Origin: an uncultured Gammaproteobacteria bacterium
Lineage (GTDB): Bacteria; Patescibacteriota; Patescibacteriia; UBA10025; JAHIVO01
DNA length: 64,000 nucleotides
Direction: 5' to 3'
Assembly: GCA_964415025.1 (NCBI GenBank)
Contig: CAYPXF010000005.1
Location: 1,484 to 65,483, forward strand
The notes beneath the pieces are model-generated. The model did not search any database. It saw only the letters and a list, made by a program, of their open reading frames with translations, and was not told the origin of the DNA. Positions 5,422-58,501 of this stretch are shown here, piece after piece; the stretch's first letter is position 1; every line of letters begins with the position of its first letter. Position numbers and translations under genes: made by a program.

Positions 5422-5432
5422 ACTAAAGAATA

Positions 5433-9305: not shown

Positions 9306-9311
9306 TCTCTT

Positions 9312-11795: not shown

Positions 11796-11800
11796 TTTCC

Positions 11801-20800: not shown

Positions 20801-21490
20801 ACTACCCGGGGGCCTTGTGTATATAACCCATTAATAAATAGGTTTGGATTTGGCTCATACAGTTTGACAACTGATGCGAGCCGGATATTTTTCCACTTTG
20901 GTCCGTATGATTCGGACTATAGCACCATACCTGAACAGGCAGAAATTCTGGAATCTCATGTTGTCGTGAGCCCGTATTCAGGTGGAGATGCCGGATTCCA
21001 GGCGCGGCAGGGTTTGCTAGACTCGGCCATAGCCGATTTTGCGGGCTTTACTGATAATCCGTATGAATTGACGATGTCACCGGAAGTATCTGAAATCGCT
21101 GAAGAAATAACAGATTCATGGGACAGTTTGAGCATCTTTTCATTTGCTGACACCAGCCGGCTGATCCAGGCCTGGGTAGATTTAGAAGACTATACCGCCG
21201 GTGATGATATTGGCATCAGACTGCGCAAAGGCAGAAATGAGCAGATCTATGAAAATGAAGCCAGCAGGACTATACAGACCGGGCAGTCACGGCTCGAAGT
21301 CGACTATCTGACCCCGTTGCGTGTGTCAGGATTGTTCGTGGCGCGCGGCTATAGCTTTGACCGGAAGTATACTAAGGACCTTGCTGCCAGTGAGCAGATC
21401 TTGTATGATGGGAGAGTAGTGGCCAATACGCCGCCCGGCTTGTCAGACTTTACACGGGCGCTTCCGGTATACGCGCGAGTAACACCGTAA
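11801..21490 (+). CDS. giant membrane-anchored mosaic surface protein (~3229 aa): FN3-like domains, FDG/YDGTYLW beta-propeller, seven tandem ~45-aa PH[IV].W repeats, C-terminal triplicated DNRLRE-like/carbohydrate-binding-like domains
   Basis: single 9.7-kb ORF; ATG at 11801 is 6 nt after paralog C stop (the ORF track opens it at an overlapping TTG at 11780); N-terminal TM (IVFALLSIASLIVVIGLLYIVMAG); many Cys-rich and Asp-rich segments. Confidence 0.8.
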   Translation: MDQSIRHNNTFSKIVFALLSIASLIVVIGLLYIVMAGQTQDATETDPETVLDPALAQEVRNYEIVDNGDGTHSALYGVGPIQYLTNNPGEYAAIDSTIVESAREGVAYENTTNVINTFFGSDVTDPNFISYQIPGERGVGFTFPDAQQSAWAVAENVATYPELYPGMDARYTIQNDVMLEELIVDNKEDASNFHRLDQQVTLHDVYFREQDDGSITFHDADTRHAVFVIPRPVLYEDGDTLRQNANYGLHFEISRTDTDTYLISKVIDDGGKEWLEKADYPIIIDNTYIGGFNAAVGSTKRYKRIGGASWSWSIMMDSGIYGYPFITTGKYTNGCSLGNSSCIQHEYHGHYTFHTYDVGAPYTQDQVVGARFQVSMVRSDDDGEYLAPVNVYSGANAWDPNKSFSESFTAAEIEDRWNALTSMHQEVDIDTAGLPTYTNRGMCYPGSSPEQCRRVVDIDLNSIGMTSSQDHTQIMLDAPSASYLNCGGSSCNDFHGVISWRPVSSTDMPYPKLEVIYYPDPTIRVDPMAIPEGEKKMEIQIDDDFTDDSSYKLERSFDGSGGPWTEVCSNIATGASGTCQSGITYDCTGITEAGTSGYCTVTDDISVSGGGPRYSDKHTWYRARVVGTSGYVSDYSPVAHDYTFAYPYPEAPPNSDSSESWDKIKIWAPGSGNEYSNQGSFLTIDPEPTKYCMATYTPSMLGWYNPPTNDWRYHHHSSAAYSDVWNEYSEGTYDGRDYINNNDGDNLACKTMAQWIYFGGYPYYSIGEVEDSYRLRPNTYYAFSFLSQNTRDGTVNSPIVMPEYAQTRARVPSKPIQNNGITTQNALGLALDSTPQYAPTEYVNDPNGNTTYAMYVEELNRYFNSDTGTLSSSAVWRRESDWGGAGGIAYGGFAPGTCYSIKAKSRNGASIEGETPARIWSDTGQYCTKMAVPSLSVACQYTDADDDYNCDITLDANGNPAGTEYKFEYCLPESGSNCSAGSGDWQEILIGGKEWNSYNHGDSINVSENTPGYSFLNCEDANMKQMFRGYARRNSSSPSTDPSPAAEDTLPPCQPWSLGHANNPQYSKIQWQWWAPIAADYTGNPVHHYNVYEPTYLARHCDAGNASDLYCDNPFDVQIDDSCSGPFCLFSYTQEQYQRIPKFDNNTQYSTKVRAADSRGRSGRPSAEAWAYTAIETPTGITFDDVQTDTIALNGDGTFSNFSIGSTGLQFQETTSHNGGGADSGELGFTPSGWLSNGQSTTDKGLDQNTKYCYQVRARNAEGHLSGPGDITGFVPASAECRYTLAGTPNMPILERIDGETINITVRDTDDNPHGSPTDNGGETQYALCITKFDDDNVVEFEKYVRPDGTIDYAGVDCASGNGTGYWQSYDGWGNTAGVTIGSLEASARYDFKFKARNGDHIENGADSSGCTANETCIETTFGPEATLFLVKNNVVGWAWSSNSGWISLNCLNQFYAGDQYSCDSADDWGLNTDFVEGRDVNPIEGYAWSASGRAIDKVWTGSNILVDYALPSRVQHSARAGSFIWATAGDALLRIDAASGVEYTCVGSAELSNDWERCTFGDDLRDIVYDGTYLWVSSYNDSIIYQVNPVDGTVAAVDSGSIQLQGLTTTPQGITYDGTYLWVTDPTNDRVLQVDPAAGSEVDQIDVGDQPQYPYYDGKYIWVANAGETHSGQVSRISVADNTVTSIDLSNDNAYDISSDNEHIWISHANTEVITIISPDGSDQATINTDGADSRGIAYADGYIWAADQDADTIYQIDIVSRDVVAEHEVGGNYDPLHMSIDDAYIWASTDDGEVGGQYIALQRLETGVSPDKVGLGWLTYSRGVCSDNAQKPCDPDRNTCGGTATCEPAAGLPPDSTAYGYCYTDGTPDERYGLCSVNTGAVCTDSIACPDPEETCIYHTCQTGDTCPDYGSGTEVCVAMATTNFDGLTREVRGYGRSLTMAQRGAALGFDDWGWISMDGTYTDEADAVARYGVTATDVDSQLFLGDPDVNPDDVILYSLFGWGWNAEVSDFGPVSTWLNPLNVSNTKKVNHSAGWPVTESSIAIDSTGNPHIAWSQFNENSGFNDIYHVRLIGGQWQMMDGSVYQPGVSEPIVSTVTNSGMPSLAVDSSNIPHLVWQEQEGTEADISGGELQYSTWNSETNTWTAMQQIETSGPSCGGASLVIDEANRPHVAYRVHSYDDSEIYYRYFNGSDWVTASGDTGTTDINVSNTGSPHSYQPRLVLSDETTQRPHIVWREQVGAEYHIYYRHWDGNDWVTASGNTGDTDVSVNGDLGTVLGISIEGANPDIVLYADNRPGIIWRDPGMVLYRQWNGSAWVDANPDDGDTDDDIWINIHEGSDVEHLAHSGKTPRVAIDSDDQPHVVWGDYPSGGDSSGDIRYRWWNASAEAGNGAWVTSSGDYTVSGSHFDDDSLTIHESPNIGSTLPDFTMDALGNPHVIWQDVRYKLNDDAAECAANGDINCICSSHADCGDPDYPFCMTRSPDKYCGAADVKYAGWLPGRVRSGIGWVEFMPVGALIGVPWVQTLYSDIYAQENIGLAPPPRGTGTYTATYLILANGDIQGIPSYYTSSQTGEPTSGYYEPGLESLIEDAGYPVGRDALSQIDVDNLIAANDENNAYGNLVHNYDNSGSSSVNISPDLTSGPLNGEVFYFHDADNGLYQVNDIIRFNKGESQINQTAGHGLVIIDGDLEINSPIYYEKRCNGLAGETICTTNNECDSGEVCRAVELDDVSEMPSVAFIVRGNIYVNSQVNELAGVYVALDPDTTDEVDKGIIYTSRKAPITQTIIASEDDTSVDSAYTNSSSADTVSFGQNSSIAQRGFLRWQLNVPAGAEIRNAYLRLYGDGNGNATDFRARIYLLDTANAEQVSNDFTANPNQSLFDADTSNSVSYDINEDTWDTGGWNTSPDISALVQKFVNEPTYESGNYIGIELREEAGVDGWRGFEAYDAVAANYAELVVEYSPRRTVYSLADIDGDDAPDEQSDYAAWGTGSGTCDQNDDDTTRGPCVYNPLINRFGFGSYSLTTDASRIFFHFGPYDSDYSTIPEQAEILESHVVVSPYSGGDAGFQARQGLLDSAIADFAGFTDNPYELTMSPEVSEIAEEITDSWDSLSIFSFADTSRLIQAWVDLEDYTAGDDIGIRLRKGRNEQIYENEASRTIQTGQSRLEVDYLTPLRVSGLFVARGYSFDRKYTKDLAASEQILYDGRVVANTPPGLSDFTRALPVYARVTP

Positions 21491-45505: not shown

Positions 45506-45579
45506 TCGGGGTGGCGGGACTTGAACCCGCGACCTCACGCACCCCATGCGTACGCGCTAGCCAACTGCGCTACACCCCG
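45506..45579 (-). tRNA. tRNA-Pro (anticodon GGG), 74 nt, no encoded CCA
   Basis: revcomp folds as acceptor CGGGGTG/CACCCCG, D arm GCGC-AGTTGGCTA-GCGC, anticodon stem TACGC/GCGTG with loop AUGGGGU (GGG at 34-36, G37), T arm GCGGG-TTCAAGT-CCCGC. Confidence 0.85.
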
Positions 45580-46517: not shown

Positions 46518-46590
46518 CATGGCTGATGATATTATTTTGGTTAATGCACAAGATAAACAAATTGGCACGGGTGAAAAAATGCCGGTGCTT
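46518..46590 (+). pseudogene. degenerate duplicate of the 5' end of idi (about 90% nt identity to 57992-58064; 1-nt insertion causes a frameshift)
   Basis: ATGGCTGATGATATTATTTTGGTTAATGCACAAGATAAACAAAATTGGCACGGGTGAAAAAATGCCGGTGC aligns with the intact idi start; identity stops exactly where a TTAGG array begins. Confidence 0.7.
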
Positions 46591-46596
46591 AAGTGA

Positions 46597-46630
46597 TTAG
46601 GTTTTAGGTGTTAAGAGGTTAGGTTTTCAG
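46597..46630 (+). repeat. TTAGGnn(n) degenerate heptamer/octamer tandem array, copy a
   Basis: gaTTAGGttTTAGGtgTTAAGaggTTAGGtt. Confidence 0.7.
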
Positions 46631-46664
46631 ACTAATAAAACCATTGAAATAGCGTCTAAATCTA

Positions 46665-46694
46665 CTGGAAAAATGGGGTGGTTTGGGGTATAAT
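46665..46694 (+). promoter_or_regulatory. repeated promoter module copy 1 (CTGGAA-18 nt-TATAAT within GGAAAAATGGGGTGGTTTGGGGTATAATA)
   Basis: near-identical 30-bp block also at 49469-49498; each lies ~30 nt upstream of a gene start. Confidence 0.5.
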
Positions 46695-46721
46695 AAGAAC
46701 ATAGATTAATAAAATAACACC

Positions 46722-47912
46722 ATGCAACAATTATTAAGAAGCATCCAGGAAATTGAAAAACTGGGCAACTATCCTTGTATCGATACCATTGAAGGTTCGC
46801 TGGGACCGAAGGTAAAAATTGACGGTGAAGATTATTATTTATTTTCTTCAAATGGGTATTTGGGGTTTTCAACTCATCCACAATGTAAAACCGCCGCAAT
46901 TAACGCGATAGAAAAGTATGGCACGGGTTCTGGTGCTTCGCGTGTTGTTTCGGGAACATATGATATACACACTAAACTTGAAGATGAGATAGCCAATTTC
47001 AAAGAAAAAGAGTCGGCCATGGTTTTGACCAGCGGATATTCGGCCAACGTAAGTCTGATACCAGTATTGGCAAACAGTTTTTCAATATTTAGCAAGAAGC
47101 CAGATTTTAAAACGATGATCTTTAGCGATGAATACAATCATGCGAGTATTATTGATGGTGTTAAATTGTCTGGATCGGCTGTTACAATATATCCGCATAA
47201 AGACATGAAGTTCTTAGAAGAAATGTTACAAAAGTATGATAGCTACCGGAAGCTCATTATTACGGATAGTATTTTTAGTATGGATGGGGACATAGCGCCT
47301 TTAGACAGAATAGTTGAACTGAAAAAAAAATATAATGCGATGCTATTAATAGATGAAGCGCACGCTACTGGCGTCATTGGTAAATACGGAAAGGGAGTTG
47401 CAAACTTTCTTAACGTGACTAAAGACGTGGATATCATAATGGGAACTTTCAGTAAGGCTTTTGGCTCTATTGGAGCATATATTGCCAGTAGTTGTGAAAT
47501 TATTAAATTACTAAAAGTTGCGGTAAGAGGGTATGTTTTTTCAACTGCACTCCCCCCCCCTGATCTGGCCGTTAGCCGAGAGTCTATAAAAATTTTGAAA
47601 GATAGTCCAGGTCTGGGCGATGAGCTTCAGAAAAAATCTACTTACCTTAGAGATTCTCTAAACAAAATAGGATTTTCGACACTTGGTAGCCAAACGCAAA
47701 TAATTCCTATTTTAATCGGAGACATTATGATAGCTTTGAAATTTCAAACTGAATTGAGGAAACGAAAAATTATCGCACCCTGCATCCAATGGCCAGCCGT
47801 ACCAAGGGATAAAAGTCGTATTAGATTCTCTGTCATGCTGACTCACTCAAAAGAGGATATAGAATACCTAATAAATTCATGCCAGAAGATTAAAAAAGAC
47901 CTACAAATATAA
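46722..47912 (+). CDS. PLP-dependent alpha-oxoamine synthase (BioF/Kbl/serine palmitoyltransferase family)
   Basis: 396 aa class II aminotransferase; PLP-lysine motif GTFSKAFGSIGAYIAS; family motifs DEAHATGVIG, SGYSANV. Confidence 0.8.
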   Translation: MQQLLRSIQEIEKLGNYPCIDTIEGSLGPKVKIDGEDYYLFSSNGYLGFSTHPQCKTAAINAIEKYGTGSGASRVVSGTYDIHTKLEDEIANFKEKESAMVLTSGYSANVSLIPVLANSFSIFSKKPDFKTMIFSDEYNHASIIDGVKLSGSAVTIYPHKDMKFLEEMLQKYDSYRKLIITDSIFSMDGDIAPLDRIVELKKKYNAMLLIDEAHATGVIGKYGKGVANFLNVTKDVDIIMGTFSKAFGSIGAYIASSCEIIKLLKVAVRGYVFSTALPPPDLAVSRESIKILKDSPGLGDELQKKSTYLRDSLNKIGFSTLGSQTQIIPILIGDIMIALKFQTELRKRKIIAPCIQWPAVPRDKSRIRFSVMLTHSKEDIEYLINSCQKIKKDLQI

Positions 47913-47927
47913 GAACCATTCAATATT

Positions 47928-49394
47928 ATGCTTGGCATCGCATTGTTATTAATCGGTATTGCTGAAATACTACTCAGCATTTTTGTATTAAAAAAGGGTT
48001 ATCAAAAAATTACTAATCTGTTATTCTTTTTCTTTGCTTTCATTACGGGTGTCTGGGTGATATCTAATTATTTAATTGGTGTTACCGAAAATATTTTCTG
48101 GCTAAAAATGGCTTACGCTCTTGGCGCGTTAATATATTCAGCCAGTTTTATTTGGTTATTAAATTTTTTATACCCAAAAATAAAAAAAACGTGGCTCTGG
48201 CTTATATTCATTATAGCTATTATCTTTTCAATTTTATCATTAACTGATGAGTTAATAATTAAAAAGGCAACAAAATTTTATTTTGGTGGTTTCGAGGGTG
48301 AATTCGGTATTTTATTTACACCCTATCTGATTTTTGCGGCATTAATGACGGTTTTAAATATTTGGTTTGTAGTCCGCGGGACTAAAATAAATATTGGCCA
48401 GAAAAAGCTACAGTTGAAATATATTACTATAGGTTTTGTAACCTTTGGGCTGGGCGCATCCTTGGCTTCATTTATTATCCCCAGCCTTGGCTATAAAGAA
48501 TTTATTCCTCTTGATTCAATATTTTCATTACCATTACTACTAGCAATTAGCTATGCCATTATTAAATATAGGTTTTTAGACATCCGCTTCATCCTCCGCA
48601 AATCCTTCATCTATGTTGGTCTTGCCGTATTCGTCTTCTTCGCCTACTACTTCGCCCTATGGCTGGATAATACTTTGTTTGGCGGGTCATACAGCATTGG
48701 CGGGTATCTTTCGGCCATTGCCATCGCCCCCCTTTTTCTCCTGGGGTTTGGCTATGTGAGCCGTTGGCTCAAGCATATCGCCAACAAATACTTTTTCACC
48801 GGTCTGTATGATTATCAGGAAGTATTAGAAACCTTCGCCAAGAGAATATCCCAGACCATTGAGCTGGATGAGGCGGTGAATGTAGTAGTAGAAACCATCC
48901 AGGGTGCCATGCGGGTAGATAACATAGCCATTGCCTTGTCAGATCCATCACATAAGATGCCCTTCCTTCTTCACAGAGTCATCGGTTTTAATAAGGAGGA
49001 ATTGGAAAATATCTGTGACCGCCAGACATTCTGCTCCTACCTCCAATCAGCCAAAAAACCAATTGTCATAGACGAACTTTTATCTGCCTCAGAAACAAAA
49101 GATAATCCCCACCTTATAAAAGACGCTAAATATCTCAAAGACCTGGGCGTGGCATTAATCCTACCCTTGGTGGTCCAAGATAATGTTAACAGCGTCTGTA
49201 TTGTAGGCAGGAAAATAACCAAAGAAGCCTATACCAAAGAAGACATTGATCTATTAACCACTCTTTCCAACCAAGCCTCGGTGGCCATTGAAAACGCCCG
49301 TCTGTATCAAGAAGTGCAGGATTTCAACCAGAACCTCCAGCAAAAAGTGGAAGACCAGACTAGGGACATCAAAGAGGCTTGTTTAGTATATTAG
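47928..49394 (+). CDS. truncated sensor histidine-kinase paralog: 6-TM sensor + GAF domain, no HisKA/HATPase
   Basis: 488 aa; the last ~265 aa are identical to residues ~225-490 of the full kinase at 51019; the ORF stops with the TAG of the first TTAGG repeat. Confidence 0.7.
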   Translation: MLGIALLLIGIAEILLSIFVLKKGYQKITNLLFFFFAFITGVWVISNYLIGVTENIFWLKMAYALGALIYSASFIWLLNFLYPKIKKTWLWLIFIIAIIFSILSLTDELIIKKATKFYFGGFEGEFGILFTPYLIFAALMTVLNIWFVVRGTKINIGQKKLQLKYITIGFVTFGLGASLASFIIPSLGYKEFIPLDSIFSLPLLLAISYAIIKYRFLDIRFILRKSFIYVGLAVFVFFAYYFALWLDNTLFGGSYSIGGYLSAIAIAPLFLLGFGYVSRWLKHIANKYFFTGLYDYQEVLETFAKRISQTIELDEAVNVVVETIQGAMRVDNIAIALSDPSHKMPFLLHRVIGFNKEELENICDRQTFCSYLQSAKKPIVIDELLSASETKDNPHLIKDAKYLKDLGVALILPLVVQDNVNSVCIVGRKITKEAYTKEDIDLLTTLSNQASVAIENARLYQEVQDFNQNLQQKVEDQTRDIKEACLVY

Positions 49395-49445
49395 GATATT
49401 AGGTTTTTGTGGTTAGTGTGCTTGGAAGTTAGTTGGTAGGTAAAC
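49391..49445 (+). repeat. TTAGGnn(n) tandem array, copy b
   Basis: aTTAGGataTTAGGtttttgtggTTAGtgtgcTTGGaagTTAGttggTAGGtaaa. Confidence 0.7.
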
Positions 49446-49468
49446 TAGTGAAATATAGCCTAATTATA

Positions 49469-49498
49469 TTGGAAAAATGGGGTTGCTTGGGGTATAAT
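49469..49498 (+). promoter_or_regulatory. repeated promoter module copy 2 (TTGGAA-18 nt-TATAAT)
   Basis: GGAAAAATGGGGTTGCTTGGGGTATAATA. Confidence 0.5.
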
Positions 49499-49525
49499 AG
49501 GGGTACTATAGAATAAATCAACGTT

Positions 49526-50353
49526 ATGTTTAAAGATTACTATATTAAACAATTAAGAATAAGAGGAAATGGAAAGTATAAATTGTTTGTACTGGAAAGC
49601 TTTAATGAATCAAAGAAACTATACAATATCCGAAATTTTATTTTACAAAATATTGATCAAATAATTAATGAGGGTTGGGGGAAATTTAGTAAAGATTTTA
49701 TTAGAAAACATATTATTTTTGCCAAGCGATTACTGGTATTAAGAAATGGGGAAAAAATTATAGCTATTGCCGCAGCTAGTGAAAAAAAAATCATTAATAA
49801 GGCTATGCTTTATTTAGAATTTACTGTAGTTCACCCCAACTTTAGGGGATTTAATCTTCTTTCTAAATTAAACTATATTTTGATTAGAGATGCTTTTCTA
49901 GGTAATTTATTTGTTAAGGGGGGGGGATTAAGTCTAGAAGTAATAACAATTACGCCCAATATGAGAGTGCTGGCGACTTTAGCAAAGGTCGCTAGTTTTA
50001 TTTACCCGAACCCTTTTGAGGCAGATGATAACGGTCGAATCTCGCAGGCAGATGATACAACATATAAAATTGCACAGGAAATTATTACGACGAGTGATGA
50101 TCCGAGTAGGCAAATTGAACGAGAGGGCCTAGTTCTTAAAGGTTCGTACAGAAATACCCCATGGCTTATACACGATCAGCCCCTACGACATTATAACGAA
50201 AATATAAATTTATTTTGTAAAAAATATATTGAATATGATAAAAGGAGCGATAAAGAATTCATTATTAGAGCAATAATTACTCCTAAAAGTTTTTTAAAAT
50301 TATTTTATAAGGTTTTCAAAAGACGCTTGTCTAATGGTAATGGGGAAAAATAA
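49526..50353 (+). CDS. hypothetical protein, possibly a GNAT-fold acyltransferase
   Basis: 275 aa; weak GNAT motif-A-like block VVHPNFRGFNLLSKL. Confidence 0.4.
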   Translation: MFKDYYIKQLRIRGNGKYKLFVLESFNESKKLYNIRNFILQNIDQIINEGWGKFSKDFIRKHIIFAKRLLVLRNGEKIIAIAAASEKKIINKAMLYLEFTVVHPNFRGFNLLSKLNYILIRDAFLGNLFVKGGGLSLEVITITPNMRVLATLAKVASFIYPNPFEADDNGRISQADDTTYKIAQEIITTSDDPSRQIEREGLVLKGSYRNTPWLIHDQPLRHYNENINLFCKKYIEYDKRSDKEFIIRAIITPKSFLKLFYKVFKRRLSNGNGEK

Positions 50354-50367
50354 TACTACGCTAAACT

Positions 50368-51009
50368 ATGAATAAAAAAAATTCTATAGAAAAAATAAGT
50401 GAGCAACAATTTGACAAGTGGGCGGTTAAATATGAAAAAGGTGTTTGGAATAAATATTTTACAAAAAGCATAAAACATGCAGTGCAATTAGCGAACATTC
50501 AAAAAACATCCAAGGTACTTGATTTGGGCTGTGGCACAGGCAAATTGAGTATTTTGTTAACAGAAAATCCATTTATAGAGCAGATAATTGGAATGGATAT
50601 TTCACAAAATATGATAAGGCAGGCAAAGTACAAACAGAAATATTTTAGACTTGGTGATAAAGTAAATTTTATGGTTGGAAATTCAAATAATCTTAATTTT
50701 GATAATGGCTACTTTGATTATGTATTCTGTCTTAATTCATTTCATCATTATCCCAGTCAAAGCAAAGTACTGGAAGAGGTTTTTAGAGTAATGAAAAGTG
50801 GAGGTCGGTTTATACTCCTGGATCCTTTTAGGGATAATATTTTACGAAAAACGTGGGCCGTGGCTTTAAAGAAAATTTTCAATGAAGATTACGCAGATTA
50901 CCAGACAAAGTCTGCTATTCAAGAAATGTTATTAAATTGTGGATTTCATAATTTACACCAAGAAACTTATTTATACTTTACATTGTTTACTATATCTGAA
51001 AAAAATTAA
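50368..51009 (+). CDS. class I SAM-dependent methyltransferase
   Basis: motif I VLDLGCGTGKLS; motif post-I GMDIS; Rossmann-fold spacing. Confidence 0.8.
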   Translation: MNKKNSIEKISEQQFDKWAVKYEKGVWNKYFTKSIKHAVQLANIQKTSKVLDLGCGTGKLSILLTENPFIEQIIGMDISQNMIRQAKYKQKYFRLGDKVNFMVGNSNNLNFDNGYFDYVFCLNSFHHYPSQSKVLEEVFRVMKSGGRFILLDPFRDNILRKTWAVALKKIFNEDYADYQTKSAIQEMLLNCGFHNLHQETYLYFTLFTISEKN

Positions 51010-51018
51010 AATAAGCTT

Positions 51019-53262
51019 ATGGATATCTCTATTTTAATATTAGTCAGCGTCACTAATTTGACACTTGGTTATTTAACGATTCATCAAGGCATTAAAAAGA
51101 AAATAAATCTTATTTTTTTTCTCCTTACATTATTTATTATCCAGTGGTCGGTTTTTAATTATTTTGGCGATTATTTTGCCGAGGTCAGTATAAATGAAAA
51201 AGTTTCAACAATTTATACCAGACTAACATATTTAGCCAGCTCGATTATTGCTGGTCTTTTCTTTGTTTTTGTTATTTTTTTTCCACGACAGCGGAAAAAA
51301 CTTTCAAAGATGCTTACATCAGGATTAATAATTGCTAGCATTGTTGTTATTACATTATCATTCACCACCCACATGGTAGAAAAAGTTAACGTTGTTGACA
51401 GTCAAGTAAATGTTAGTACGGGGTCTTTATTTTTTATATTTATTATCTATTTCGCCGTATTAATGGTTTCTTCTTTTGTTATTCTTATCAGAAAATATAT
51501 TTTATCCGAGGGAATAGAAAAAATACAAATCCGCTATTTTTTCTTAGGAACGTTTTTAGCAACATTGTTTGCGTCAATAACTAATATTTTTATCCCTCTC
51601 TTGACAGGCAGTTTTCAGGCATCGCGATTTGGACCGTATTTCACATTATTTTTCGTTGCCTTCACCGCCTACGCCATCATCAAACACCGCTTTCTCGACA
51701 TCCGCTTCATCCTTCGCAAATCCTTCATCTACGTAGGATTGGCAGTTTTCGTCTCCTTCGCCTACTACTTCGCCCTATGGCTGGATAATACTTTGTTTGG
51801 CGGGTCATACAGCATTGGCGGGTATCTTTCGGCCATTGCCATCGCCCCCCTTTTTCTCCTGGGGTTTGGCTATGTGAGCCGTTGGCTCAAGCATATCGCC
51901 AACAAATACTTTTTCACCGGTCTGTATGATTATCAGGAAGTATTAGAAACCTTCGCCAAGAGAATATCCCAGACCATTGAGCTGGATGAGGCGGTGAATG
52001 TAGTAGTAGAAACCATCCAGGGTGCCATGCGGGTAGATAACATAGCCATTGCCTTGTCAGATCCATCACATAAGATGCCCTTCCTTCTTCACAGAGTCAT
52101 CGGTTTTAATAAGGAGGAATTGGAAAATATCTGTGACCGCCAGACATTCTGCTCCTACCTCCAATCAGCCAAAAAACCAATTGTCATAGACGAACTTTTA
52201 TCTGCCTCAGAAACAAAAGATAATCCCCACCTTATAAAAGACGCTAAATATCTCAAAGACCTGGGCGTGGCATTAATCCTACCCTTGGTGGTCCAAGATA
52301 ATGTTAACAGCGTCTGTATTGTAGGCAGGAAAATAACCAAAGAAGCCTATACCAAAGAAGACATTGATCTATTAACCACTCTTTCCAACCAAGCCTCGGT
52401 GGCCATTGAAAACGCCCGTCTGTATCAAGAAGTGCAGGATTTCAACCAGAACCTCCAGCAAAAAGTGGAAGACCAAACCAGGGACATCAAAGAGGCCAAC
52501 AAACGACTGGAAAAACTCCTGCAGATCCGTTCGGAATTTCTGGATATTGCCAGCCATCAATTAAGAACTCCTGTCTCCATGATCCGCGGGGTATTGTCCA
52601 TGATTAGGGAAGGGGATCTGGAAAAATTACCTAAAGCCAAACAGAAAAAATTTATTGAAAATGCTTGGGAAAAAGGGGCCAAGCTGGATACCATTATCAA
52701 CGACATCCTGGCCGCTTCGGAATTGGACACCCAGAAATTTCAGGTAGAGAAAGACACCCCGGCTATTCAGTTGGAAGACGTGGTTGATCAAGTGGTCAAA
52801 GAATCCCAGATGGAAGCGGAGCAGAGGAAGATAGAATTAAAATGGTACAAACCTAAAACCATTCTTCCCAAAATTCAAGGACATACCAAATTTTTAAATG
52901 AGGCCATTTCCAATCTGGTTAGTAATGCCTTGAAATATACCCCTTCAACTGAGATGGTAAAAGAGGCCAGAACTCAGCGTAAACAAAAAGGCGTGGTAGA
53001 AGTAGAGGTTGAGCAAAAGGATAATAATGTTGTGGTCAAAGTTAAAGATAACGGCATCGGCATTCCCAAAGATGAAATAAAAAATCTGTTCGACAAGTTC
53101 GCTCGTGCCTCCAATGCCACGGCCATGTATACGGACGGCTCGGGTCTCGGACTATTCATCGTTAAAGAGATCGTTGAAGGGCACAAAGGAAAAGTCTGGG
53201 TGGAGAGTGAGGAGGGTAAGGGGTCAACATTTTATGTTAGTTTGCCGGTGGCGAATGATTAG
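51019..53262 (+). CDS. sensor histidine kinase (7-TM sensor, GAF, HisKA, HATPase_c)
   Basis: 747 aa; H-box SHQLRTPVS, N-box NLVSNALKYT, G-boxes DNGIGIP and GSGLGL; the stop TAG is part of a TTAGG repeat. Confidence 0.9.
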   Translation: MDISILILVSVTNLTLGYLTIHQGIKKKINLIFFLLTLFIIQWSVFNYFGDYFAEVSINEKVSTIYTRLTYLASSIIAGLFFVFVIFFPRQRKKLSKMLTSGLIIASIVVITLSFTTHMVEKVNVVDSQVNVSTGSLFFIFIIYFAVLMVSSFVILIRKYILSEGIEKIQIRYFFLGTFLATLFASITNIFIPLLTGSFQASRFGPYFTLFFVAFTAYAIIKHRFLDIRFILRKSFIYVGLAVFVSFAYYFALWLDNTLFGGSYSIGGYLSAIAIAPLFLLGFGYVSRWLKHIANKYFFTGLYDYQEVLETFAKRISQTIELDEAVNVVVETIQGAMRVDNIAIALSDPSHKMPFLLHRVIGFNKEELENICDRQTFCSYLQSAKKPIVIDELLSASETKDNPHLIKDAKYLKDLGVALILPLVVQDNVNSVCIVGRKITKEAYTKEDIDLLTTLSNQASVAIENARLYQEVQDFNQNLQQKVEDQTRDIKEANKRLEKLLQIRSEFLDIASHQLRTPVSMIRGVLSMIREGDLEKLPKAKQKKFIENAWEKGAKLDTIINDILAASELDTQKFQVEKDTPAIQLEDVVDQVVKESQMEAEQRKIELKWYKPKTILPKIQGHTKFLNEAISNLVSNALKYTPSTEMVKEARTQRKQKGVVEVEVEQKDNNVVVKVKDNGIGIPKDEIKNLFDKFARASNATAMYTDGSGLGLFIVKEIVEGHKGKVWVESEEGKGSTFYVSLPVAND

Positions 53263-53315
53263 GCAGTTAGGTCTTAGTAATTTGGTAATAGGTTCAGAAA
53301 TTTGAAATTAGGTAT
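53259..53315 (+). repeat. TTAGGnn(n) tandem array, copy c
   Basis: gaTTAGGcagTTAGGtcTTAGtaatttggtaaTAGGttcagaaatttgaaaTTAGGta. Confidence 0.7.
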
Positions 53316-53360
53316 TACTAAAATAAAAAATAAATAAAAATACTAAATTATTATGAATTT

Positions 53361-53507
53361 ATGGCTTTAATTAAAAAAGATTCAAAAACACTGGTTGATT
53401 ATATCAAAACTGAGATTGAACAGGCAGTAAGTAATGAAATCAAGCCTCTGTGTCAAGATATTAATGCGCATCAGAGCTCGGTGGATAAATATATTAAACA
53501 AACATAG
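53361..53507 (+). CDS. possible 48-aa small protein
   Basis: ATG-to-TAG ORF in an otherwise gene-free 260-nt gap; no RBS; below the ORF-track cutoff. Confidence 0.2.
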   Translation: MALIKKDSKTLVDYIKTEIEQAVSNEIKPLCQDINAHQSSVDKYIKQT

Positions 53508-53580
53508 GATTGGCATCAAGAGTTTATTGTTAGTAAAGGCATAGCCACTGAAAAAAAACTCTAACCATAAAATTTCAACA

Positions 53581-53985
53581 ATGAAATTGAATAAAAAATC
53601 ATCTGATAAATTATGGGGTGAAACAGGCCCCTATTCACAAGTCAATCTTATCATGCAAGAAAGAATTCTTGATGATAAGGTAAGTCGCGTTTTCGCTATA
53701 GTTGAGGTGGAAATAAATCCATTGACTTTTGAAATTATCAAACAAAACAGGAAGGCGGACATTTTTAAAAATGACATAAAGATTCAACAATTGCTTGACA
53801 CCGCGGAATATAGAGGCATTGCCTTTGGTTATGTATCGTCAGCTTATGAAAAACAGTTAACTGGCCCAGAGATTATGAAAGAAGCGGAAAAGAGCCTTGA
53901 TTATACACGGAAAACCGTTATTAAGATGCATAAATTTGTGATGGATTTGTTGGATGTAGACAACAAAAAGCAAAAAGATAGATAG
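53581..53985 (+). CDS. hypothetical protein (134 aa)
   Basis: ORF only. Confidence 0.5.
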   Translation: MKLNKKSSDKLWGETGPYSQVNLIMQERILDDKVSRVFAIVEVEINPLTFEIIKQNRKADIFKNDIKIQQLLDTAEYRGIAFGYVSSAYEKQLTGPEIMKEAEKSLDYTRKTVIKMHKFVMDLLDVDNKKQKDR

Positions 53986-54002
53986 AATTAACTAACGATC
54001 AT

Positions 54003-54060
54003 AACCTATTAACCTAAAACCTACCCCCTATAACCTAATCGCCTAATCCCTAAAACCTAA
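54003..54060 (-). repeat. TTAGGnn(n) tandem array, copy d (inverted, reads CCTAA on plus), abutting the start codon of the REC gene
   Basis: aaCCTAttaaCCTAAaaCCTAcccCCTAtaaCCTAAtcgCCTAAtcCCTAAaaCCTAATG. Confidence 0.7.
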
Positions 54061-54437
54061 TGACTACAAAACCTAAAATACTTTTAATCGAAGACGATTC
54101 GGATCAAATATTTCTCTACCAAAGCAAATTTGAAATTGAGGGATTTGATTTTATTTCCAGTCGGGATGGTGATGCAGGCATTACCAAGGCCAAATCAGAA
54201 AAACCCGATTGCATCCTGTTGGACTTGGTGTTGATTAATGAAAGCGGAATTGAAGTGTTAGAAAAAATAAAAAAAGACCAAAATATTAAACATATACCGG
54301 TTATTATTCTCACCAATTTGGTGCAAAAAGATAACGAGCAAAAAGCTATAGAGTTAGGAGCCGCTGATTTTCTTATCAAAACAAATATGATGCCGTCGGA
54401 TGTGGTGAAGAGAGTTAGGAAGTTGTTAAAAATATAG
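54060..54437 (+). CDS. stand-alone REC-domain response regulator
   Basis: 125 aa; KILLIEDDSDQIFLY...LLDLVLINESGIEVL...ILTNLVQKDN. Confidence 0.8.
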   Translation: MTTKPKILLIEDDSDQIFLYQSKFEIEGFDFISSRDGDAGITKAKSEKPDCILLDLVLINESGIEVLEKIKKDQNIKHIPVIILTNLVQKDNEQKAIELGAADFLIKTNMMPSDVVKRVRKLLKI

Positions 54438-54566: not shown

Positions 54567-55139
54567 ATGGATAGTTTAATAACTATATTATATAGGTCTA
54601 GTAAGACTATTTTGACTAATAAGGATATTGCTTTGATGTGGGGAGAAACCCATCAAGGTAATCTTAAATCTAAAATTGCCTATTATGTTAAACGTGGATT
54701 TTTAATCCGTCTAACGAGAGGTGTATTTGCCAAGGATAAAAATTATAATCCAAAAGAATTAGCCACCAGCATATATACCCCTTCATATATTAGTTTTGAA
54801 ACCGTACTTCGGGAATCGGGAAATATTTTTCAACATTATGATACAATTTTTGTGGCTGGTCCGTGGCCACTGTCAAAAAAAATTAATAAATATGCTTTCA
54901 CATTCAGACGATTAAAAGACAGTGTATTATATAACGCCGCCGGGATTAAAAATGAAAATAATTACAGCATGGCAACCCCAGAGCGAGCTTTTTTGGATAT
55001 GATTTATTTATTCCCAAGATATTATTTTGATAATCTGGCGATGATTGATTGGCAAAAGTGCTTTGAACTGGTAAATATTTATGGTAACCAGCAGTTGACC
55101 AAACGGCTGGTAAAATATCAGCAACAATATGTTAAATAA
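54567..55139 (+). CDS. AbiEi-family antitoxin/transcriptional regulator (type IV TA / abortive infection)
   Basis: 190 aa; wHTH-like N-terminus; YISFETVLRESGNI and ERAFLDMIYL blocks typical of AbiEi; 11-nt overlap with the downstream gene. Confidence 0.7.
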   Translation: MDSLITILYRSSKTILTNKDIALMWGETHQGNLKSKIAYYVKRGFLIRLTRGVFAKDKNYNPKELATSIYTPSYISFETVLRESGNIFQHYDTIFVAGPWPLSKKINKYAFTFRRLKDSVLYNAAGIKNENNYSMATPERAFLDMIYLFPRYYFDNLAMIDWQKCFELVNIYGNQQLTKRLVKYQQQYVK

Positions 55140-55857
55140 AAATAAACACCAGTTAATTATGGGGCAGATTTTAAGGGACATTTATGCCGATGTTTCAATT
55201 TCTTCATTGTTAGGTTTAAAAGGTGATACCGGTGCATATTTTTTCTACAGCCTTTCTAGATTTTCGGTTGATTTAGATTTTGATTTGTTTTTTACTAACG
55301 AATCAACACAAAAGTTAATGTTTGAAAAAATCAAAAACATAACAAAGAAGTATGGTAAAATTAAAAATAGCTACATCAAAAGAAATACTATCTTTTCACT
55401 TCTTTCATACGGTGATACCGATCATAATATAAAAATAGAAATAAATACCAGAATGTTAATGCCAGACATCAGGCAATACTACGAGATGAAGGAATATTTG
55501 GGAATTTCTATGTTAGTCGGCAAAAAGGATTATATGTTTGCCAGCAAATTAGTCGCCTTAACAAATTGCCGTACCACAGCGATGCGTGATATTTACGATA
55601 TTTGGTATTTCGCCAAAAATAATTGGGATATCAGCGAGGAGGTAATTTTGACGAGAATCAAGAAGACCATTCCCGAGCATTTGGGCGACTGTATTTCGGT
55701 AATCGAAAAAATAAAAGACAATGAAATTTTACAAGGTCTGGGTGAACTTTTGAATGATAAAGAAAAGATATGGGTAAAAAAGAATTTGAGAAAAGATGTA
55801 ATATTTCATCTTAAAAATTATCAAACTGTATTAGCCCACCGCTCTGGCAATGAATGA
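55129..55857 (+). CDS. AbiEii/AbiGii-family nucleotidyltransferase toxin
   Basis: 242 aa; NTase-fold motif LKGDTGAYFFYSLSRFSVDLDFD (GS..D.D); TA-style overlap with the upstream gene. Confidence 0.7.
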   Translation: MLNKNKHQLIMGQILRDIYADVSISSLLGLKGDTGAYFFYSLSRFSVDLDFDLFFTNESTQKLMFEKIKNITKKYGKIKNSYIKRNTIFSLLSYGDTDHNIKIEINTRMLMPDIRQYYEMKEYLGISMLVGKKDYMFASKLVALTNCRTTAMRDIYDIWYFAKNNWDISEEVILTRIKKTIPEHLGDCISVIEKIKDNEILQGLGELLNDKEKIWVKKNLRKDVIFHLKNYQTVLAHRSGNE

Positions 55858-55964: not shown

Positions 55965-56348
55965 ATGAATAACAAAGCGAACAAAAAAACCATTCTGTTG
56001 ATTGAAGACGACCAAGATCAAATACTACTCTACCAGGCTAAATTTGAGCTGGAAGGATATGCATTTATCTCTGCGGAAAATGGTCAAAAAGGACTTGAAC
56101 TGGCCACCAAGGAAAAACCCAACCTCATATTGATTGACTTATTGATGGCCGGCATGGGTGGTATTGAAGTATTGGAGAAACTGAAAGACAATCCGGAAAC
56201 AAAGAACATCCCCGCGGTCATCGTCACCAACTTAGACAAGCAGGATTTAGCCAAAAAAGCTATGGCTTTGGGCGCCCAGGATTTCATCGTCAAATCCAGC
56301 GTACCACTGAGGGAAATGATGTCTCGGATAAAAGAGTTTCTGAAATAG
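55965..56348 (+). CDS. stand-alone REC-domain response regulator
   Basis: 127 aa; TILLIEDDQDQILLY...LIDLLMAGMGGIEVL...IVTNLDKQD. Confidence 0.8.
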   Translation: MNNKANKKTILLIEDDQDQILLYQAKFELEGYAFISAENGQKGLELATKEKPNLILIDLLMAGMGGIEVLEKLKDNPETKNIPAVIVTNLDKQDLAKKAMALGAQDFIVKSSVPLREMMSRIKEFLK

Positions 56349-56414: not shown

Positions 56415-56825
56415 TTATTTCTTCGTTTTGTACTTTTTTATTAATCCCTCCATAATTTCCACCAGCTTTTCCGGTGTAGTCGTATATTTAACGATAAACG
56501 TATCAGCATGTAGCTGCTCGGCTTTGGTTTTGTATTCAGCGCTATCCCAGTTGGTGAGGATCATGACCGGCACCGGTTTGTAGTCTTTTTTCTTGCGGAA
56601 ATACTCCAGGATCATCCAGCATTCTGAATCGGGCAGTACTACGTCCAGGATTAACGCTTTAGGGTGCTCGTTCCGCAAGGCCAGCACGGCGGAAATTGCT
56701 GTCCGGGCCATGATCGGGGTGTATCCTTCAATAACGAATTTCTGCCGGAACATTTCTGACAGAAATTTATCATCTTCCACGAAGAGGATTTTGCCCTTGT
56801 TCGGTTTTTTACCTTTTTTTGGCAT
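56415..56825 (-). CDS. stand-alone REC-domain response regulator
   Basis: 136 aa; KILFVEDDKFLSEMF...ILDVVLPDSECWMIL...ILTNWDSAEY. Confidence 0.8.
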   Translation of the reverse strand: MPKKGKKPNKGKILFVEDDKFLSEMFRQKFVIEGYTPIMARTAISAVLALRNEHPKALILDVVLPDSECWMILEYFRKKKDYKPVPVMILTNWDSAEYKTKAEQLHADTFIVKYTTTPEKLVEIMEGLIKKYKTKK

Positions 56826-56830
56826 GTGGT

Positions 56831-57166
56831 TTATTTACTGAGTATTTTCTGCAGGTACCTGTATATAATTTTACCATGCGGACTGCGTTTATTCAATCGC
56901 TTGAGAAACAGCTTGGCTTCTTTTTTCTTGGCAATATCTGGAATGGTACCCAGTTTCAGAAGTCCGTCGAAAACAAAGATTTTGTAAATTTCTTCCTCGG
57001 ATAATCCGAGTATCCTGAACGCTTTAATGGCTGTTTTTTCCGATGGCTGACGCTGTTCTTTTTCGATACGAAACAGCGAGATGCGGTTAATGCCGAGCTT
57101 TTTGGAAAGCTCCATAACGCCCATCCCTTGTTCGGTGCGTAGTATTTTTATCAGTTCGCCAAGCAT
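56831..57166 (-). CDS. XRE-family helix-turn-helix transcriptional regulator
   Basis: 111 aa; ILRTEQGMGVMELSKKLGINRISLFRIE HTH_3 pattern; 5 nt upstream of the REC gene on the same strand. Confidence 0.75.
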   Translation of the reverse strand: MLGELIKILRTEQGMGVMELSKKLGINRISLFRIEKEQRQPSEKTAIKAFRILGLSEEEIYKIFVFDGLLKLGTIPDIAKKKEAKLFLKRLNKRSPHGKIIYRYLQKILSK

Positions 57167-57991: not shown

Positions 57992-58501
57992 ATGCCCGAT
58001 GATATTATTTTGGTTAATGCACAAGATGAACAAATCGGTACGGGTGAAAAAATGCCGGTGCATGAGCAAGGGTTGCTGCACCGCGCCTTTTCAGTGCTTA
58101 TTTTTAATAGCAATGGAGAGCTGCTGCTCCAGCAGCGGGCTAAAAGCAAGTACCATTGCGGTGGACTGTGGACCAATACAGTCTGCAGCCATCCCCGGTC
58201 GGGGGAGAGCATACTAGAGGCTGCCCACCGCCGGCTGCAGGAGGAAATGGGTTTTAACTGTGTCCTGCGGGAAACAGACAAGTTTACGTACCGCGCCGAG
58301 TTTGACAACGGCCTGATCGAGCATGAGATAGATCATGTGGTTACCGGCCTTTTTGACGGGAATCCGGAGATTAATCCAGACGAGGCTGATGCCTATCGGT
58401 GGATATCATTGCCAGACCTGCGGCATGACATGAAAACCAGTCCGGAAAAGTATACCCCGTGGTTTATAAAAATTATCGGCGAACGTTTATTCATTCGTTA
58501 G
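57992..58501 (+). CDS. idi: isopentenyl-diphosphate delta-isomerase type 1 (NUDIX fold)
   Basis: 169 aa; LHRAFSVLIFNSNGELLLQQRA...WTNTVCSHP...E.E type-1 IDI signature. Confidence 0.85.
   Translation: MPDDIILVNAQDEQIGTGEKMPVHEQGLLHRAFSVLIFNSNGELLLQQRAKSKYHCGGLWTNTVCSHPRSGESILEAAHRRLQEEMGFNCVLRETDKFTYRAEFDNGLIEHEIDHVVTGLFDGNPEINPDEADAYRWISLPDLRHDMKTSPEKYTPWFIKIIGERLFIR

Follow-up and report, generated by a model that had tools for sequence, protein, structure and literature searches.

Tandem signaling cassettes on a conserved sensor-kinase core in a Patescibacteria contig, with an exact 720-nucleotide repeat as a probable footprint of recent recombination

The DNA analyzed here, referred to as the window, is a stretch of 64,000 nucleotides (nt) from contig CAYPXF010000005.1 (positions 1,484 to 65,483, forward strand) of an uncultured bacterium of the Patescibacteriota lineage (GenBank assembly GCA_964415025.1). 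It contains a signaling locus with two receptor genes in the same orientation, ORF1 and ORF2 (ORF, open reading frame). ORF1 (47928..49394, plus strand) encodes 488 amino acids (aa), comprising a seven-transmembrane (7TM) sensor domain (sensor 1), two transmembrane (TM) helices, a GAF domain, about 25 aa of a signaling helix, and the residues CLVY before the stop codon. ORF2 (51019..53262, plus strand) encodes 747 aa, comprising another 7TM domain (sensor 2), two TM helices, a GAF domain, and the kinase domains HisKA and HATPase_c. A preliminary description of this DNA had presented the pair as a truncated and a complete histidine kinase joined by a perfectly identical segment, and had proposed that the upstream gene might be a silent cassette for switching the sensor of the kinase.

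Both proteins were compared with the HisKA_7TM-GAF kinase architecture, defined by the Pfam families PF16927, PF01590, PF00512, and PF02518. ORF2 matched HisKA_7TM (PF16927) with 49.9 bits (cut-off 28.6), HisKA with 44.9 bits, and HATPase_c with 104.4 bits, and the GAF domain was recognized in both ORFs with 34-35 bits (cut-off 22.4). The sensor of ORF1 had no Pfam match, yet BLASTP aligned it to the sensor of ORF2 at an E value of 8e-23; the two sensors are homologous and 24-30% identical. The homologous but strongly diverged sensors of the preliminary description, given there as 6-7 TM helices, are thus present, and the hydropathy scan refined them to a 7TM domain followed by two further TM helices inside the conserved part. 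In the domain search, ORF1 showed no match to HisKA or HATPase_c and therefore does not have the catalytic half of the architecture; its frame stops five codons past the point where similarity to ORF2 breaks off (…RDIKEA|CLVY*), just as the upstream copy had been described. ORF2 is a member of the HisKA_7TM-GAF sensor histidine kinase family, in agreement with its earlier description as a complete kinase, and ORF1 is a kinase-less derivative, not a kinase.

The segment common to both genes is a direct repeat of exactly 720 nt (48638..49357 and 51756..52475, both plus strand) with 0 differences, an offset of 3118 nt, and the same reading frame in both copies. It corresponds to aa 237-477 of ORF1 and includes TM9 and the GAF domain, preceded by the C-terminal half of TM8 and followed by most of the signaling helix. 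The left flank of 59 nt (48579-48637) is approximately 85% identical between the copies, with mostly synonymous differences, and encodes the strongly conserved motif RFLDIRFILRKSFIYVGLAVFV; to the left of 48579, the similarity between ORF1 and ORF2 drops to the level of unrelated DNA. On the right side, two synonymous mismatches (49358 and 49361) and 17 identical nt precede an abrupt loss of similarity at 49378|49379. 

None of the 159 synonymous sites within the tract differs, which places the 95% upper bound of the proportion of synonymous differences (pS) at 0.019, and at 8% divergence a run of 720 bases without a difference would have a probability of about 1e-26. Over the 22 codons just 5' of the tract, synonymous divergence (dS) is about 0.86, and in the sensors it is saturated. 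The left flank was considered as an older conversion tract and rejected in view of this dS of 0.86, which describes a conserved motif with synonymous differences. With dS close to 0 within the tract but at least 0.86 beyond it, the identity of the 720 nt reflects recent recombination or gene conversion and not slow divergence after a duplication. Recombination between the two copies was computed to delete 3118 nt, including cassette 2 (described below), and to leave an in-frame kinase of 738 aa that carries sensor 1; the 3.1-kb deletion predicted earlier is thus possible in frame.

The sequence that follows the break at 49378|49379 (plus strand) is homologous to the region from 46588 onward, 5' of the first enzyme gene, including its repeat array and promoter, and for this reason the locus was divided into two tandem units. 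Unit 1 (46588-49378) contains, in this order, a TTAGG-rich array, a promoter-like element, an α-oxoamine synthase gene, sensor 1, and the TM-GAF segment. Unit 2 (49379-52496) contains a TTAGG-rich array, a promoter-like element, the genes of a 275-aa protein (W275) and a methyltransferase, sensor 2, and the TM-GAF segment, and then continues into HisKA and HATPase_c. At the junction the kinase frame is broken, and ORF1 is severed from the kinase core exactly where the array of cassette 2 starts. The arrays that mark the 5' boundaries of cassettes 1 and 2 (46584..46627 and 49383..49440, both plus strand) have periods of approximately 7-8 and 22 nt, against a background of 0.05 TTAGG per 60 nt.

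A conserved promoter-like element of 58 nt follows each array. Copy 1 (46638..46695, plus strand) reads TGGAAAAATGGGGTGGTTTGGGGTATAAT, and copy 2 (49442..49499, plus strand) is 83% identical to it; the element can be written as TGGAAAAATGGGGT(G/T)G(T/C)TTGGGGTATAATA and has the form of a -35/-10-type site. Among 16 aligned cassette promoters, 15 carry GGTATAAT and one carries GGTATAGT. The element CTGGAAAAATGGGGTGGTTTGGGGTATAAT (46630-46700 and 49434-49505) also recurs nearly identically at 13985-14060 of L023, a Kerfeldbacteria-type contig whose α-oxoamine synthase is only 40% identical (L and P numbers denote the loci and proteins compared). ORF1 begins with an ATG located 15 nt past the α-oxoamine synthase gene, in an initiation context that resembles that of ORF2, and its reading frame is intact over all 488 codons. 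Because it has a start codon and an operon position behind a promoter-like site, ORF1 is not silent, and its description as a silent cassette was not borne out.

Immediately upstream of the first array lies a relic of a NUDIX/idi-like gene (46519..46588, plus strand), a 93% copy of the first 70 nt of the gene at 57992-58501 that is cut at the array start. The 70-nt relic and the intact gene, 11.4 kb apart, form a direct repeat that brackets the whole signaling locus, which is low in GC content. Judged from the arrangement, this bracketing would be compatible with a one-sided (homology-facilitated) insertion or a decayed tandem duplication. The succession of truncated coding relic, TTAGG array, and promoter was found at cassette boundaries in the window (twice), L006, L059, L023 (three times), and L005, with arrays at 8583-8630, 11458-11490, and 13928-13965 of L023, 104-140 of L006, and 8660-8695 of L059. 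The possibility that such arrays are the normal 3' flank of these kinase genes was rejected, since none follows 13 of 15 intact kinases. The arrays are candidate boundary sites without a linked enzyme: no recombinase or invertase was found among the locus ORFs scanned, and the pairing of a recombinase with a site per cassette that characterizes an integron-like platform was not seen there.

The enzyme of cassette 1 (46722..47912, plus strand) is a pyridoxal phosphate-dependent α-oxoamine synthase of the BioF/KBL/SPT/CqsA superfamily. It scored below every NCBIfam equivalog cut-off, the best being bioF with 396.8 bits (cut-off 426.45). Its assignment as a CqsA-type enzyme (NCBIfam NF005526) was rejected, as it reached 209.6 bits against a cut-off of 428 and was closer to BioF/KBL; in comparison with structures, it scored 283 bits with PDB 8s1y and 102 bits with CqsA. 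The first enzyme of cassette 2, W275 (49526..50353, plus strand), had no Pfam or NCBIfam match. Its predicted model had a pLDDT of 84, and its best PDB matches were all GNAT acyltransferases, so that W275 is, by predicted fold, a GNAT-fold acyltransferase; the alternative of a FeeM/LuxI-type synthase was rejected after profile comparison revealed no similarity. The second enzyme is a UbiE-like S-adenosylmethionine-dependent methyltransferase (50368..51009, plus strand).

These associations recur outside the window. The triad of W275, methyltransferase, and GAF kinase was also present in three other genomes (L061-L063), and the α-oxoamine synthase adjoins a 7TM receptor in L002, L006, L059, and the Kerfeldbacteria-type contigs. 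Across the relatives, each sensor type has its own upstream enzyme set, drawn from α-oxoamine synthase, a FeeM/LuxI-like GNAT (TIGR03694), a PaaK-like adenylating enzyme, a ThiF-like protein, and methyltransferases. Adjacency and co-variation of enzymes and sensor were found in the window, L001, L002, L018/L023, L008-L011, and L061-L063. Presumably, the cassette enzymes make the cognate small-molecule signal of the adjoining receptor. In L062, a 980-kb contig of a distant lineage, a 227-aa 7TM-only ORF (7287-7970) lies directly 5' of the triad and is, as far as its sequence tells, another kinase-less sensor remnant.

The homologs belong to metagenome genomes of Patescibacteria, or candidate phyla radiation (CPR) bacteria; the Lysinibacillus loci L012-L015 and L058 were left out as spurious distant GAF matches. 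The same design was most extensive in L001, a 698-kb Patescibacteria contig with four cassettes in a row, of which only the last receptor is a kinase. The other three receptors (332, 482, and 488 aa) are all intact and kept together with all their enzyme genes. The 482- and 488-aa receptors share a tract of about 650 nt at about 98% (97-100%) identity although their sensors are 26% identical, the GAF domain of the kinase is 66-69% identical to theirs, and a stretch of 956 nt is 97% identical between the first and fourth synthase regions. In L018, an exact repeat of 629 nt links a kinase-less GAF domain to that of the kinase. Short kinase relics 5' of otherwise single cassettes are 98.8% (L003/L004) and 91% (L031) identical to the resident kinase, and relics of this type also occur in L005, L006, L059, and L063.

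The point of truncation varies by lineage. It lies in the signaling helix in the window, at or just after the H-box in L018/L023 receptor A, the L059 relic, P0019, and L035, at the N-box of the catalytic and ATP-binding (CA) domain in L006, right after the GAF domain in L001, and inside the GAF domain in L023 receptor B and the 332-aa receptor of L001. In L002/L037, the GAF domains of kinase-less and kinase-bearing receptors are 28-34% identical. Five Kerfeldbacteria-type contigs (L007, L018, L022, L023, and L034) have frameshifts in both the synthase (261 + 121 aa) and receptor A (244 + 205 aa), for example at 3820-6549 of L018. The GAF domain of this frameshifted L018 receptor still carries the exact 629-nt tract, and its identity therefore reflects recombination and not selection for function. 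In L059 (10001-11086), L017, and L060, a variant of the sensor-1 gene has lost its GAF domain, with the residues QGAMR joined out of frame to the H-box region of the dimerization and histidine phosphotransfer (DHp) domain; the contigs, each from a different sample, share the same terminal base, 21 nt past the resulting stop. Upstream of the L059-type synthase, a 95-aa relic corresponds to the C-terminal half of a GAF domain and the start of DHp. The condition of displaced cassettes thus varies among genomes, from intact through frameshifted to mere relics, and every stage of decay is observed.

Comparison of the domains showed that their histories are decoupled. Across the relatives, the kinase core and the GAF domain are conserved and the 7TM sensor is hypervariable, with 51-86% identity among kinase cores and 19-37% among sensors. 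Between ORF2 and P0002, identity is 86% in the DHp-CA region but only 20% in the sensor. For sensor 1, amino acid identity to its ortholog P0019 (L002/L006) is 91%, and the adjacent synthase is 93% identical, whereas the GAF domain of ORF1 is 100% identical to that of ORF2 and 77% identical to that of P0019. Between ORF1 and P0019, nonsynonymous divergence (dN) is fourfold higher in the GAF domain (0.18) than in the sensor (0.047), and dS is 1.47 in the former and 0.88 in the latter. A tract with zero divergence, flanks with dS of at least 0.86, and paralogs that are closer to each other than to their orthologs within sharp boundaries are the signature of recent gene conversion or other recent homologous exchange. 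Of the ongoing gene conversion postulated in the preliminary description, the recent conversion or recombination tract stands, and the identity as such is no evidence of function. The 720-nt identity could also date from the stacking event itself, if two alleles with near-identical cores were joined.

Relative to L002, the ratio of nonsynonymous to synonymous substitution rates (ω) was 0.056 for the synthase and 0.053 for sensor 1, at dS of 0.65-0.88, which indicates strong purifying selection. The use of the low ω of sensor 1 as proof that the truncated form works was rejected because the truncation points differ between lineages (after RDIKEA in the window and after the H-box in P0019 of L002). 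The synthase-sensor 1 pair has a history of purifying selection, much of which may predate the truncation.

Pairs of closely related contigs displayed variation at the strain level. Over 9013 nt, L018 and L023 (two different samples) match at 99.76%, up to a point inside the GAF domain where they begin to diverge. Sensor B belongs to a complete kinase of 737 aa in L018; in L023 it ends with a stop at residue 325, followed by a TTAGG array and a further cassette. The L023 path was reproduced at 100% by L050 from another sample, and L029 follows the L018 path, with only 11 nt past the branch. The GAF domain of receptor A in L023 differs from that of L018 by a 90-nt patch with 16 differences, where the two copies of L018 agree. 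In L035, which belongs to the L002 population, a receptor is truncated at the same junction as P0019, again with a PaaK-like gene after it, and is 99.2% identical to the first 507 residues of a longer kinase in L037, the sequence of which is cut by the contig end. Many contigs of related populations end exactly at repeat borders, as real repeats would predict. The pairs L018/L023 and L035/L037, each with one sensor that is either truncated or kinase-linked, are suggestive; their joints could be assembler paths, as there is an exact run of 53 nt in L023. Comparison with related strains for the recombinant form, as proposed earlier, yielded these pairs, and no full kinase with sensor 1 was found in the databases searched with sensor 1 alone, only a 354-aa variant. 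The exact ORF1 and ORF2 sequences had no match in other assemblies.

The observations are probably best explained by recombination-driven stacking and turnover of signaling cassettes on a conserved kinase core, of which the 720-nt repeat would be a fresh footprint. A cassette consists of a TTAGG-rich array, a conserved promoter, one or more genes for acyl-transfer or condensing enzymes, and a 7TM sensor of hypervariable sequence. It is joined in frame to a conserved segment with two TM helices, the GAF domain, and the signaling helix, and this segment normally leads into HisKA-HATPase. Cassette 2 lies between receptor 1 and the kinase core, and ORF1 would thus be a receptor displaced from its kinase at the cassette-2 boundary. 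The 720-nt identity would be the footprint of a very recent homologous exchange, either gene conversion or a stacking event between near-identical cores, and the conserved segment may serve as a 3' homology anchor for the addition, duplication, homogenization, and deletion of cassettes. Deletion between the two repeat copies would re-attach sensor 1 to the kinase. The data establish how the locus is built, where it is broken, that the exchange is recent, that the design recurs among relatives, and that the domains have separate histories. We infer that the enzymes make cognate signals, that stacking took place in this order and by this mechanism, and that the repeats recombine in this organism. 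From the sensor-swapping cassette originally suggested, recombination and the direct repeats are retained; the stacked unit is instead synthase plus sensor, and ORF1 is truncated at a cassette junction, where a TTAGG array marks the border.

Several points weigh against this interpretation. TTAGG arrays are missing at some cassette boundaries (L002, L003, L008, L009, and L011), and no obvious microhomology was seen at six junctions inspected. The α-oxoamine synthase scores nearer to BioF/KBL than to CqsA, and the signal chemistry is presumed. This genome is represented by a single assembly, and short-read assemblers have difficulty in bridging an exact repeat of 720 nt; the L018 and L035 joints, too, may be assembler paths through shared k-mers, such as the 53-nt run in L023. 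In addition, ORF1 may be more than a displaced leftover, given the ω of about 0.05 for the synthase and sensor 1 and the three intact kinase-less receptors kept in L001. Displacement in a recombining array ranks first among the explanations, followed by a function of ORF1 as a kinase-less co-receptor or decoy, which is a serious rival, then by a switching system, and last by an assembly artefact.

As a co-receptor or decoy, ORF1 would be a working protein, produced together with the α-oxoamine synthase, that pairs with ORF2 through the identical TM8-TM9-GAF-signaling-helix module, so that the cassette-1 signal modulates, or is titrated away from, the single kinase, and the identity of the dimer interface would be kept by selection and conversion. 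GAF and signaling-helix (S-helix) regions dimerize in kinases, and the identical segment is the part that would be expected to do so in this pair. An intact frame, an ATG close behind the synthase gene with an ORF2-like initiation context, and the retention of about 25 residues of the signaling helix agree with a functional protein, as do the persistence of three such receptors with their enzymes in L001 and the low ω, measured against a lineage whose receptor is also kinase-less. However, that ω may date from a time when sensor 1 was part of a full kinase, and the different truncation points (after RDIKEA in the window, after the H-box in L002) suggest that the truncations may be independent and recent. 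In L018, a frameshifted receptor shares the exact 629-nt tract with the kinase, so identity needs no function, and the GAF domains of kinase-less and kinase-bearing receptors are only 28-34% (L002/L037) or 66-69% (L001) identical. Elsewhere, displaced receptors are frameshifted (the five Kerfeldbacteria-type contigs), internally deleted (L059/L017/L060), or relics. We regard a co-receptor function as unlikely, though it deserves attention; it concerns the present role of ORF1 and is compatible with a recombinational origin.

Programmed sensor switching, with the upstream cassette as a reserve and adaptive, RecA-dependent recombination of the GAF repeats to change the sensor that drives the kinase, appears quite doubtful. 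In its favor, the 720-nt direct repeats have the same phase, and their recombination would give the complete 738-aa kinase; in each of the pairs L018/L023 and L035/L037, a single sensor occurs both truncated and linked to a kinase, and the sequences part within the conserved segment, and L035 joins the 3' end of a receptor to the start of its own cassette, as expected of the reciprocal product (a circle or duplication). The deletion, however, is one-way and loses cassette 2, ORF1 is not silent, the databases searched held no sensor-1 full kinase, the locus ORFs scanned held no recombinase or invertase, and the joints of the strain pairs are possibly assembly paths through repeats. The decaying cassettes and relics are more in keeping with turnover than with reserves that are maintained, and the dedicated switching mechanism put forward in the preliminary description did not emerge from the data, since several lineages show decay of displaced cassettes. 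An assembly or polishing artefact, that is, two strains or diverged copies merged into a false tandem or a false perfect identity, is very improbable: this is a metagenome-assembled contig (65.7 kb) with an exact repeat beyond short-read length, and contigs of related populations break at exactly such repeats, but copy-specific variants lie on both sides of the tract and the junction follows the copy-1 variant, the sole alternative joining of the four flanks is a 3.1-kb circle plus a sensor-1 kinase, the L023 junction is present at 100% in a contig from another sample, and the same architecture occurs on the 698-kb contig L001 and in independent metagenomes, including the exact 629-nt repeat.

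Downstream of ORF2, the locus continues with a 134-aa ORF without family match, two single-domain response regulators (54060..54437 and 55965..56348, plus strand) with an AbiEi/AbiEii pair between them, and, on the minus strand, a third receiver protein (56415-56825) followed by an XRE-type helix-turn-helix (HTH) protein (56831-57166). The latter two (56415..57166) are conserved partners of this kinase family in relatives, where the same order was found: kinase, two response regulators, and then a response regulator and HTH protein on the minus strand. The 134-aa ORF lies within a segment of about 800 nt (53263-54065) that has TTAGG-like arrays in opposite orientation at its ends and parts the kinase from the first response regulator; both genes are adjacent in L005 and L008. 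One of these arrays is located at 53266-53315. The other, an inverted array (AACCTAA x7; 54005..54065, minus strand), is the densest in the window, lies directly 5' of response regulator 1, and is 82% complementary to 46592-46625. The AbiEi/AbiEii type IV toxin-antitoxin pair (54567-55857) separates response regulators 1 and 2, which are adjacent in relatives.

The GC content is 0.30-0.38 in the cassette genes, 0.44-0.45 in the shared TM-GAF segment and HisKA-HATPase, and 0.48 in the rest of the window. The amino acid composition of membrane segments can account for this difference only in part, since the soluble enzymes have a low GC content too. A tRNA-Pro (GGG) gene (45506-45579, minus strand) lies about 1 kb to the left of the drop in GC from approximately 0.48 to 0.35 and was the only Rfam match between 45 and 58.6 kb. 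Farther upstream, positions 2587-21490 contain a run of very large plus-strand ORFs (944, 1290, 827, and 3236 aa).

Quorum-sensing pherotype loci such as agrBDCA of Staphylococcus, comQXP of Bacillus subtilis, and comCDE of streptococci hold one allele per genome at one locus. Their signal genes and membrane sensor are hypervariable and co-vary, the cytoplasmic kinase is conserved, and alleles are exchanged by recombination in conserved flanks. The family described here is similar in the contrast between sensor (19-37%) and kinase-core (51-86%) identity and in the enzyme set that accompanies each sensor type. In contrast to pherotype loci, different cassettes stand in tandem in one genome with all receptors but the last lacking a kinase, the enzymes are of acyl-transfer types instead of peptide-processing types, and a GAF domain and a TTAGG array delimit each cassette. 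The adjacency of an α-oxoamine-synthase-family gene and a multi-pass membrane sensor kinase is reminiscent of CqsA/CqsS of Vibrio and LqsA/LqsS of Legionella; here, however, the synthase is closer to BioF/KBL, and the receptor consists of 7TM, two TM helices, and a GAF domain and is kinase-less in the window.

Neisseria pilE/pilS and Borrelia vlsE are gene conversion systems with silent cassettes. As in these systems, truncated paralogs lie near a full-length expressed gene with conserved segments that would allow homologous exchange. Silent donors have neither promoter nor start codon, whereas ORF1 has a start codon and an upstream promoter-like site; moreover, the identical tract is confined to the constant part, and the expected event would be deletion or duplication of a whole cassette instead of patchwise conversion of a variable region. 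A discrete zero-divergence tract amid saturated paralogs that are closer than orthologs is shared with concerted evolution by gene conversion in general, from which the locus differs in that the converted segment is one module of a multidomain receptor and may double as the recombination anchor of a cassette array. Modulation of a kinase by heteromerization is exemplified by RetS-GacS of Pseudomonas, in which RetS acts through its DHp domain. By analogy, this pair might be a model for the control of a kinase by a kinase-less receptor, although ORF1, unlike RetS, has no DHp domain. The locus therefore resembles pherotype loci combined with concerted evolution of paralogs, and it differs from known systems by the stacking of cassettes within a genome, the kinase-less upstream receptors, the common GAF-containing anchor, and the TTAGG array at cassette starts. 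A full-text literature search returned no description of an arrangement with stacked cassettes, kinase-less receptors, and a GAF anchor.

A broader proposal can be made only tentatively, and we would not expect it to hold in full. Patescibacteria might own a dedicated cassette platform for the specificity of cell-cell signaling, in which cassettes of synthase and 7TM sensor, with TTAGG 5' ends and a TM-GAF 3' anchor, are captured, stacked, homogenized, and exchanged on a single kinase core, with the kinase-less receptors acting as co-receptors. If true, such an integron-like or pherotype-stacking system would be without a described precedent in two-component signaling.

How sensor kinases gain input specificity and how signal-receptor pairs diversify jointly are long-standing questions. 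The loci compared here capture stages of such a process: a fresh and intact displaced receptor in the window, multi-cassette arrays in L001, strain-level gain or loss of cassettes in L018/L023, and decaying cassettes and relics. The window supplies parts that can be tested, namely two enzyme sets, two receptors, one kinase, three receiver proteins, a conserved promoter, and a boundary repeat. The recurring pattern suggests how such bacteria swap sensing specificities, and the locus points to small-molecule cell-cell signaling in reduced, episymbiotic CPR bacteria, a group in which very little signaling biology is known.

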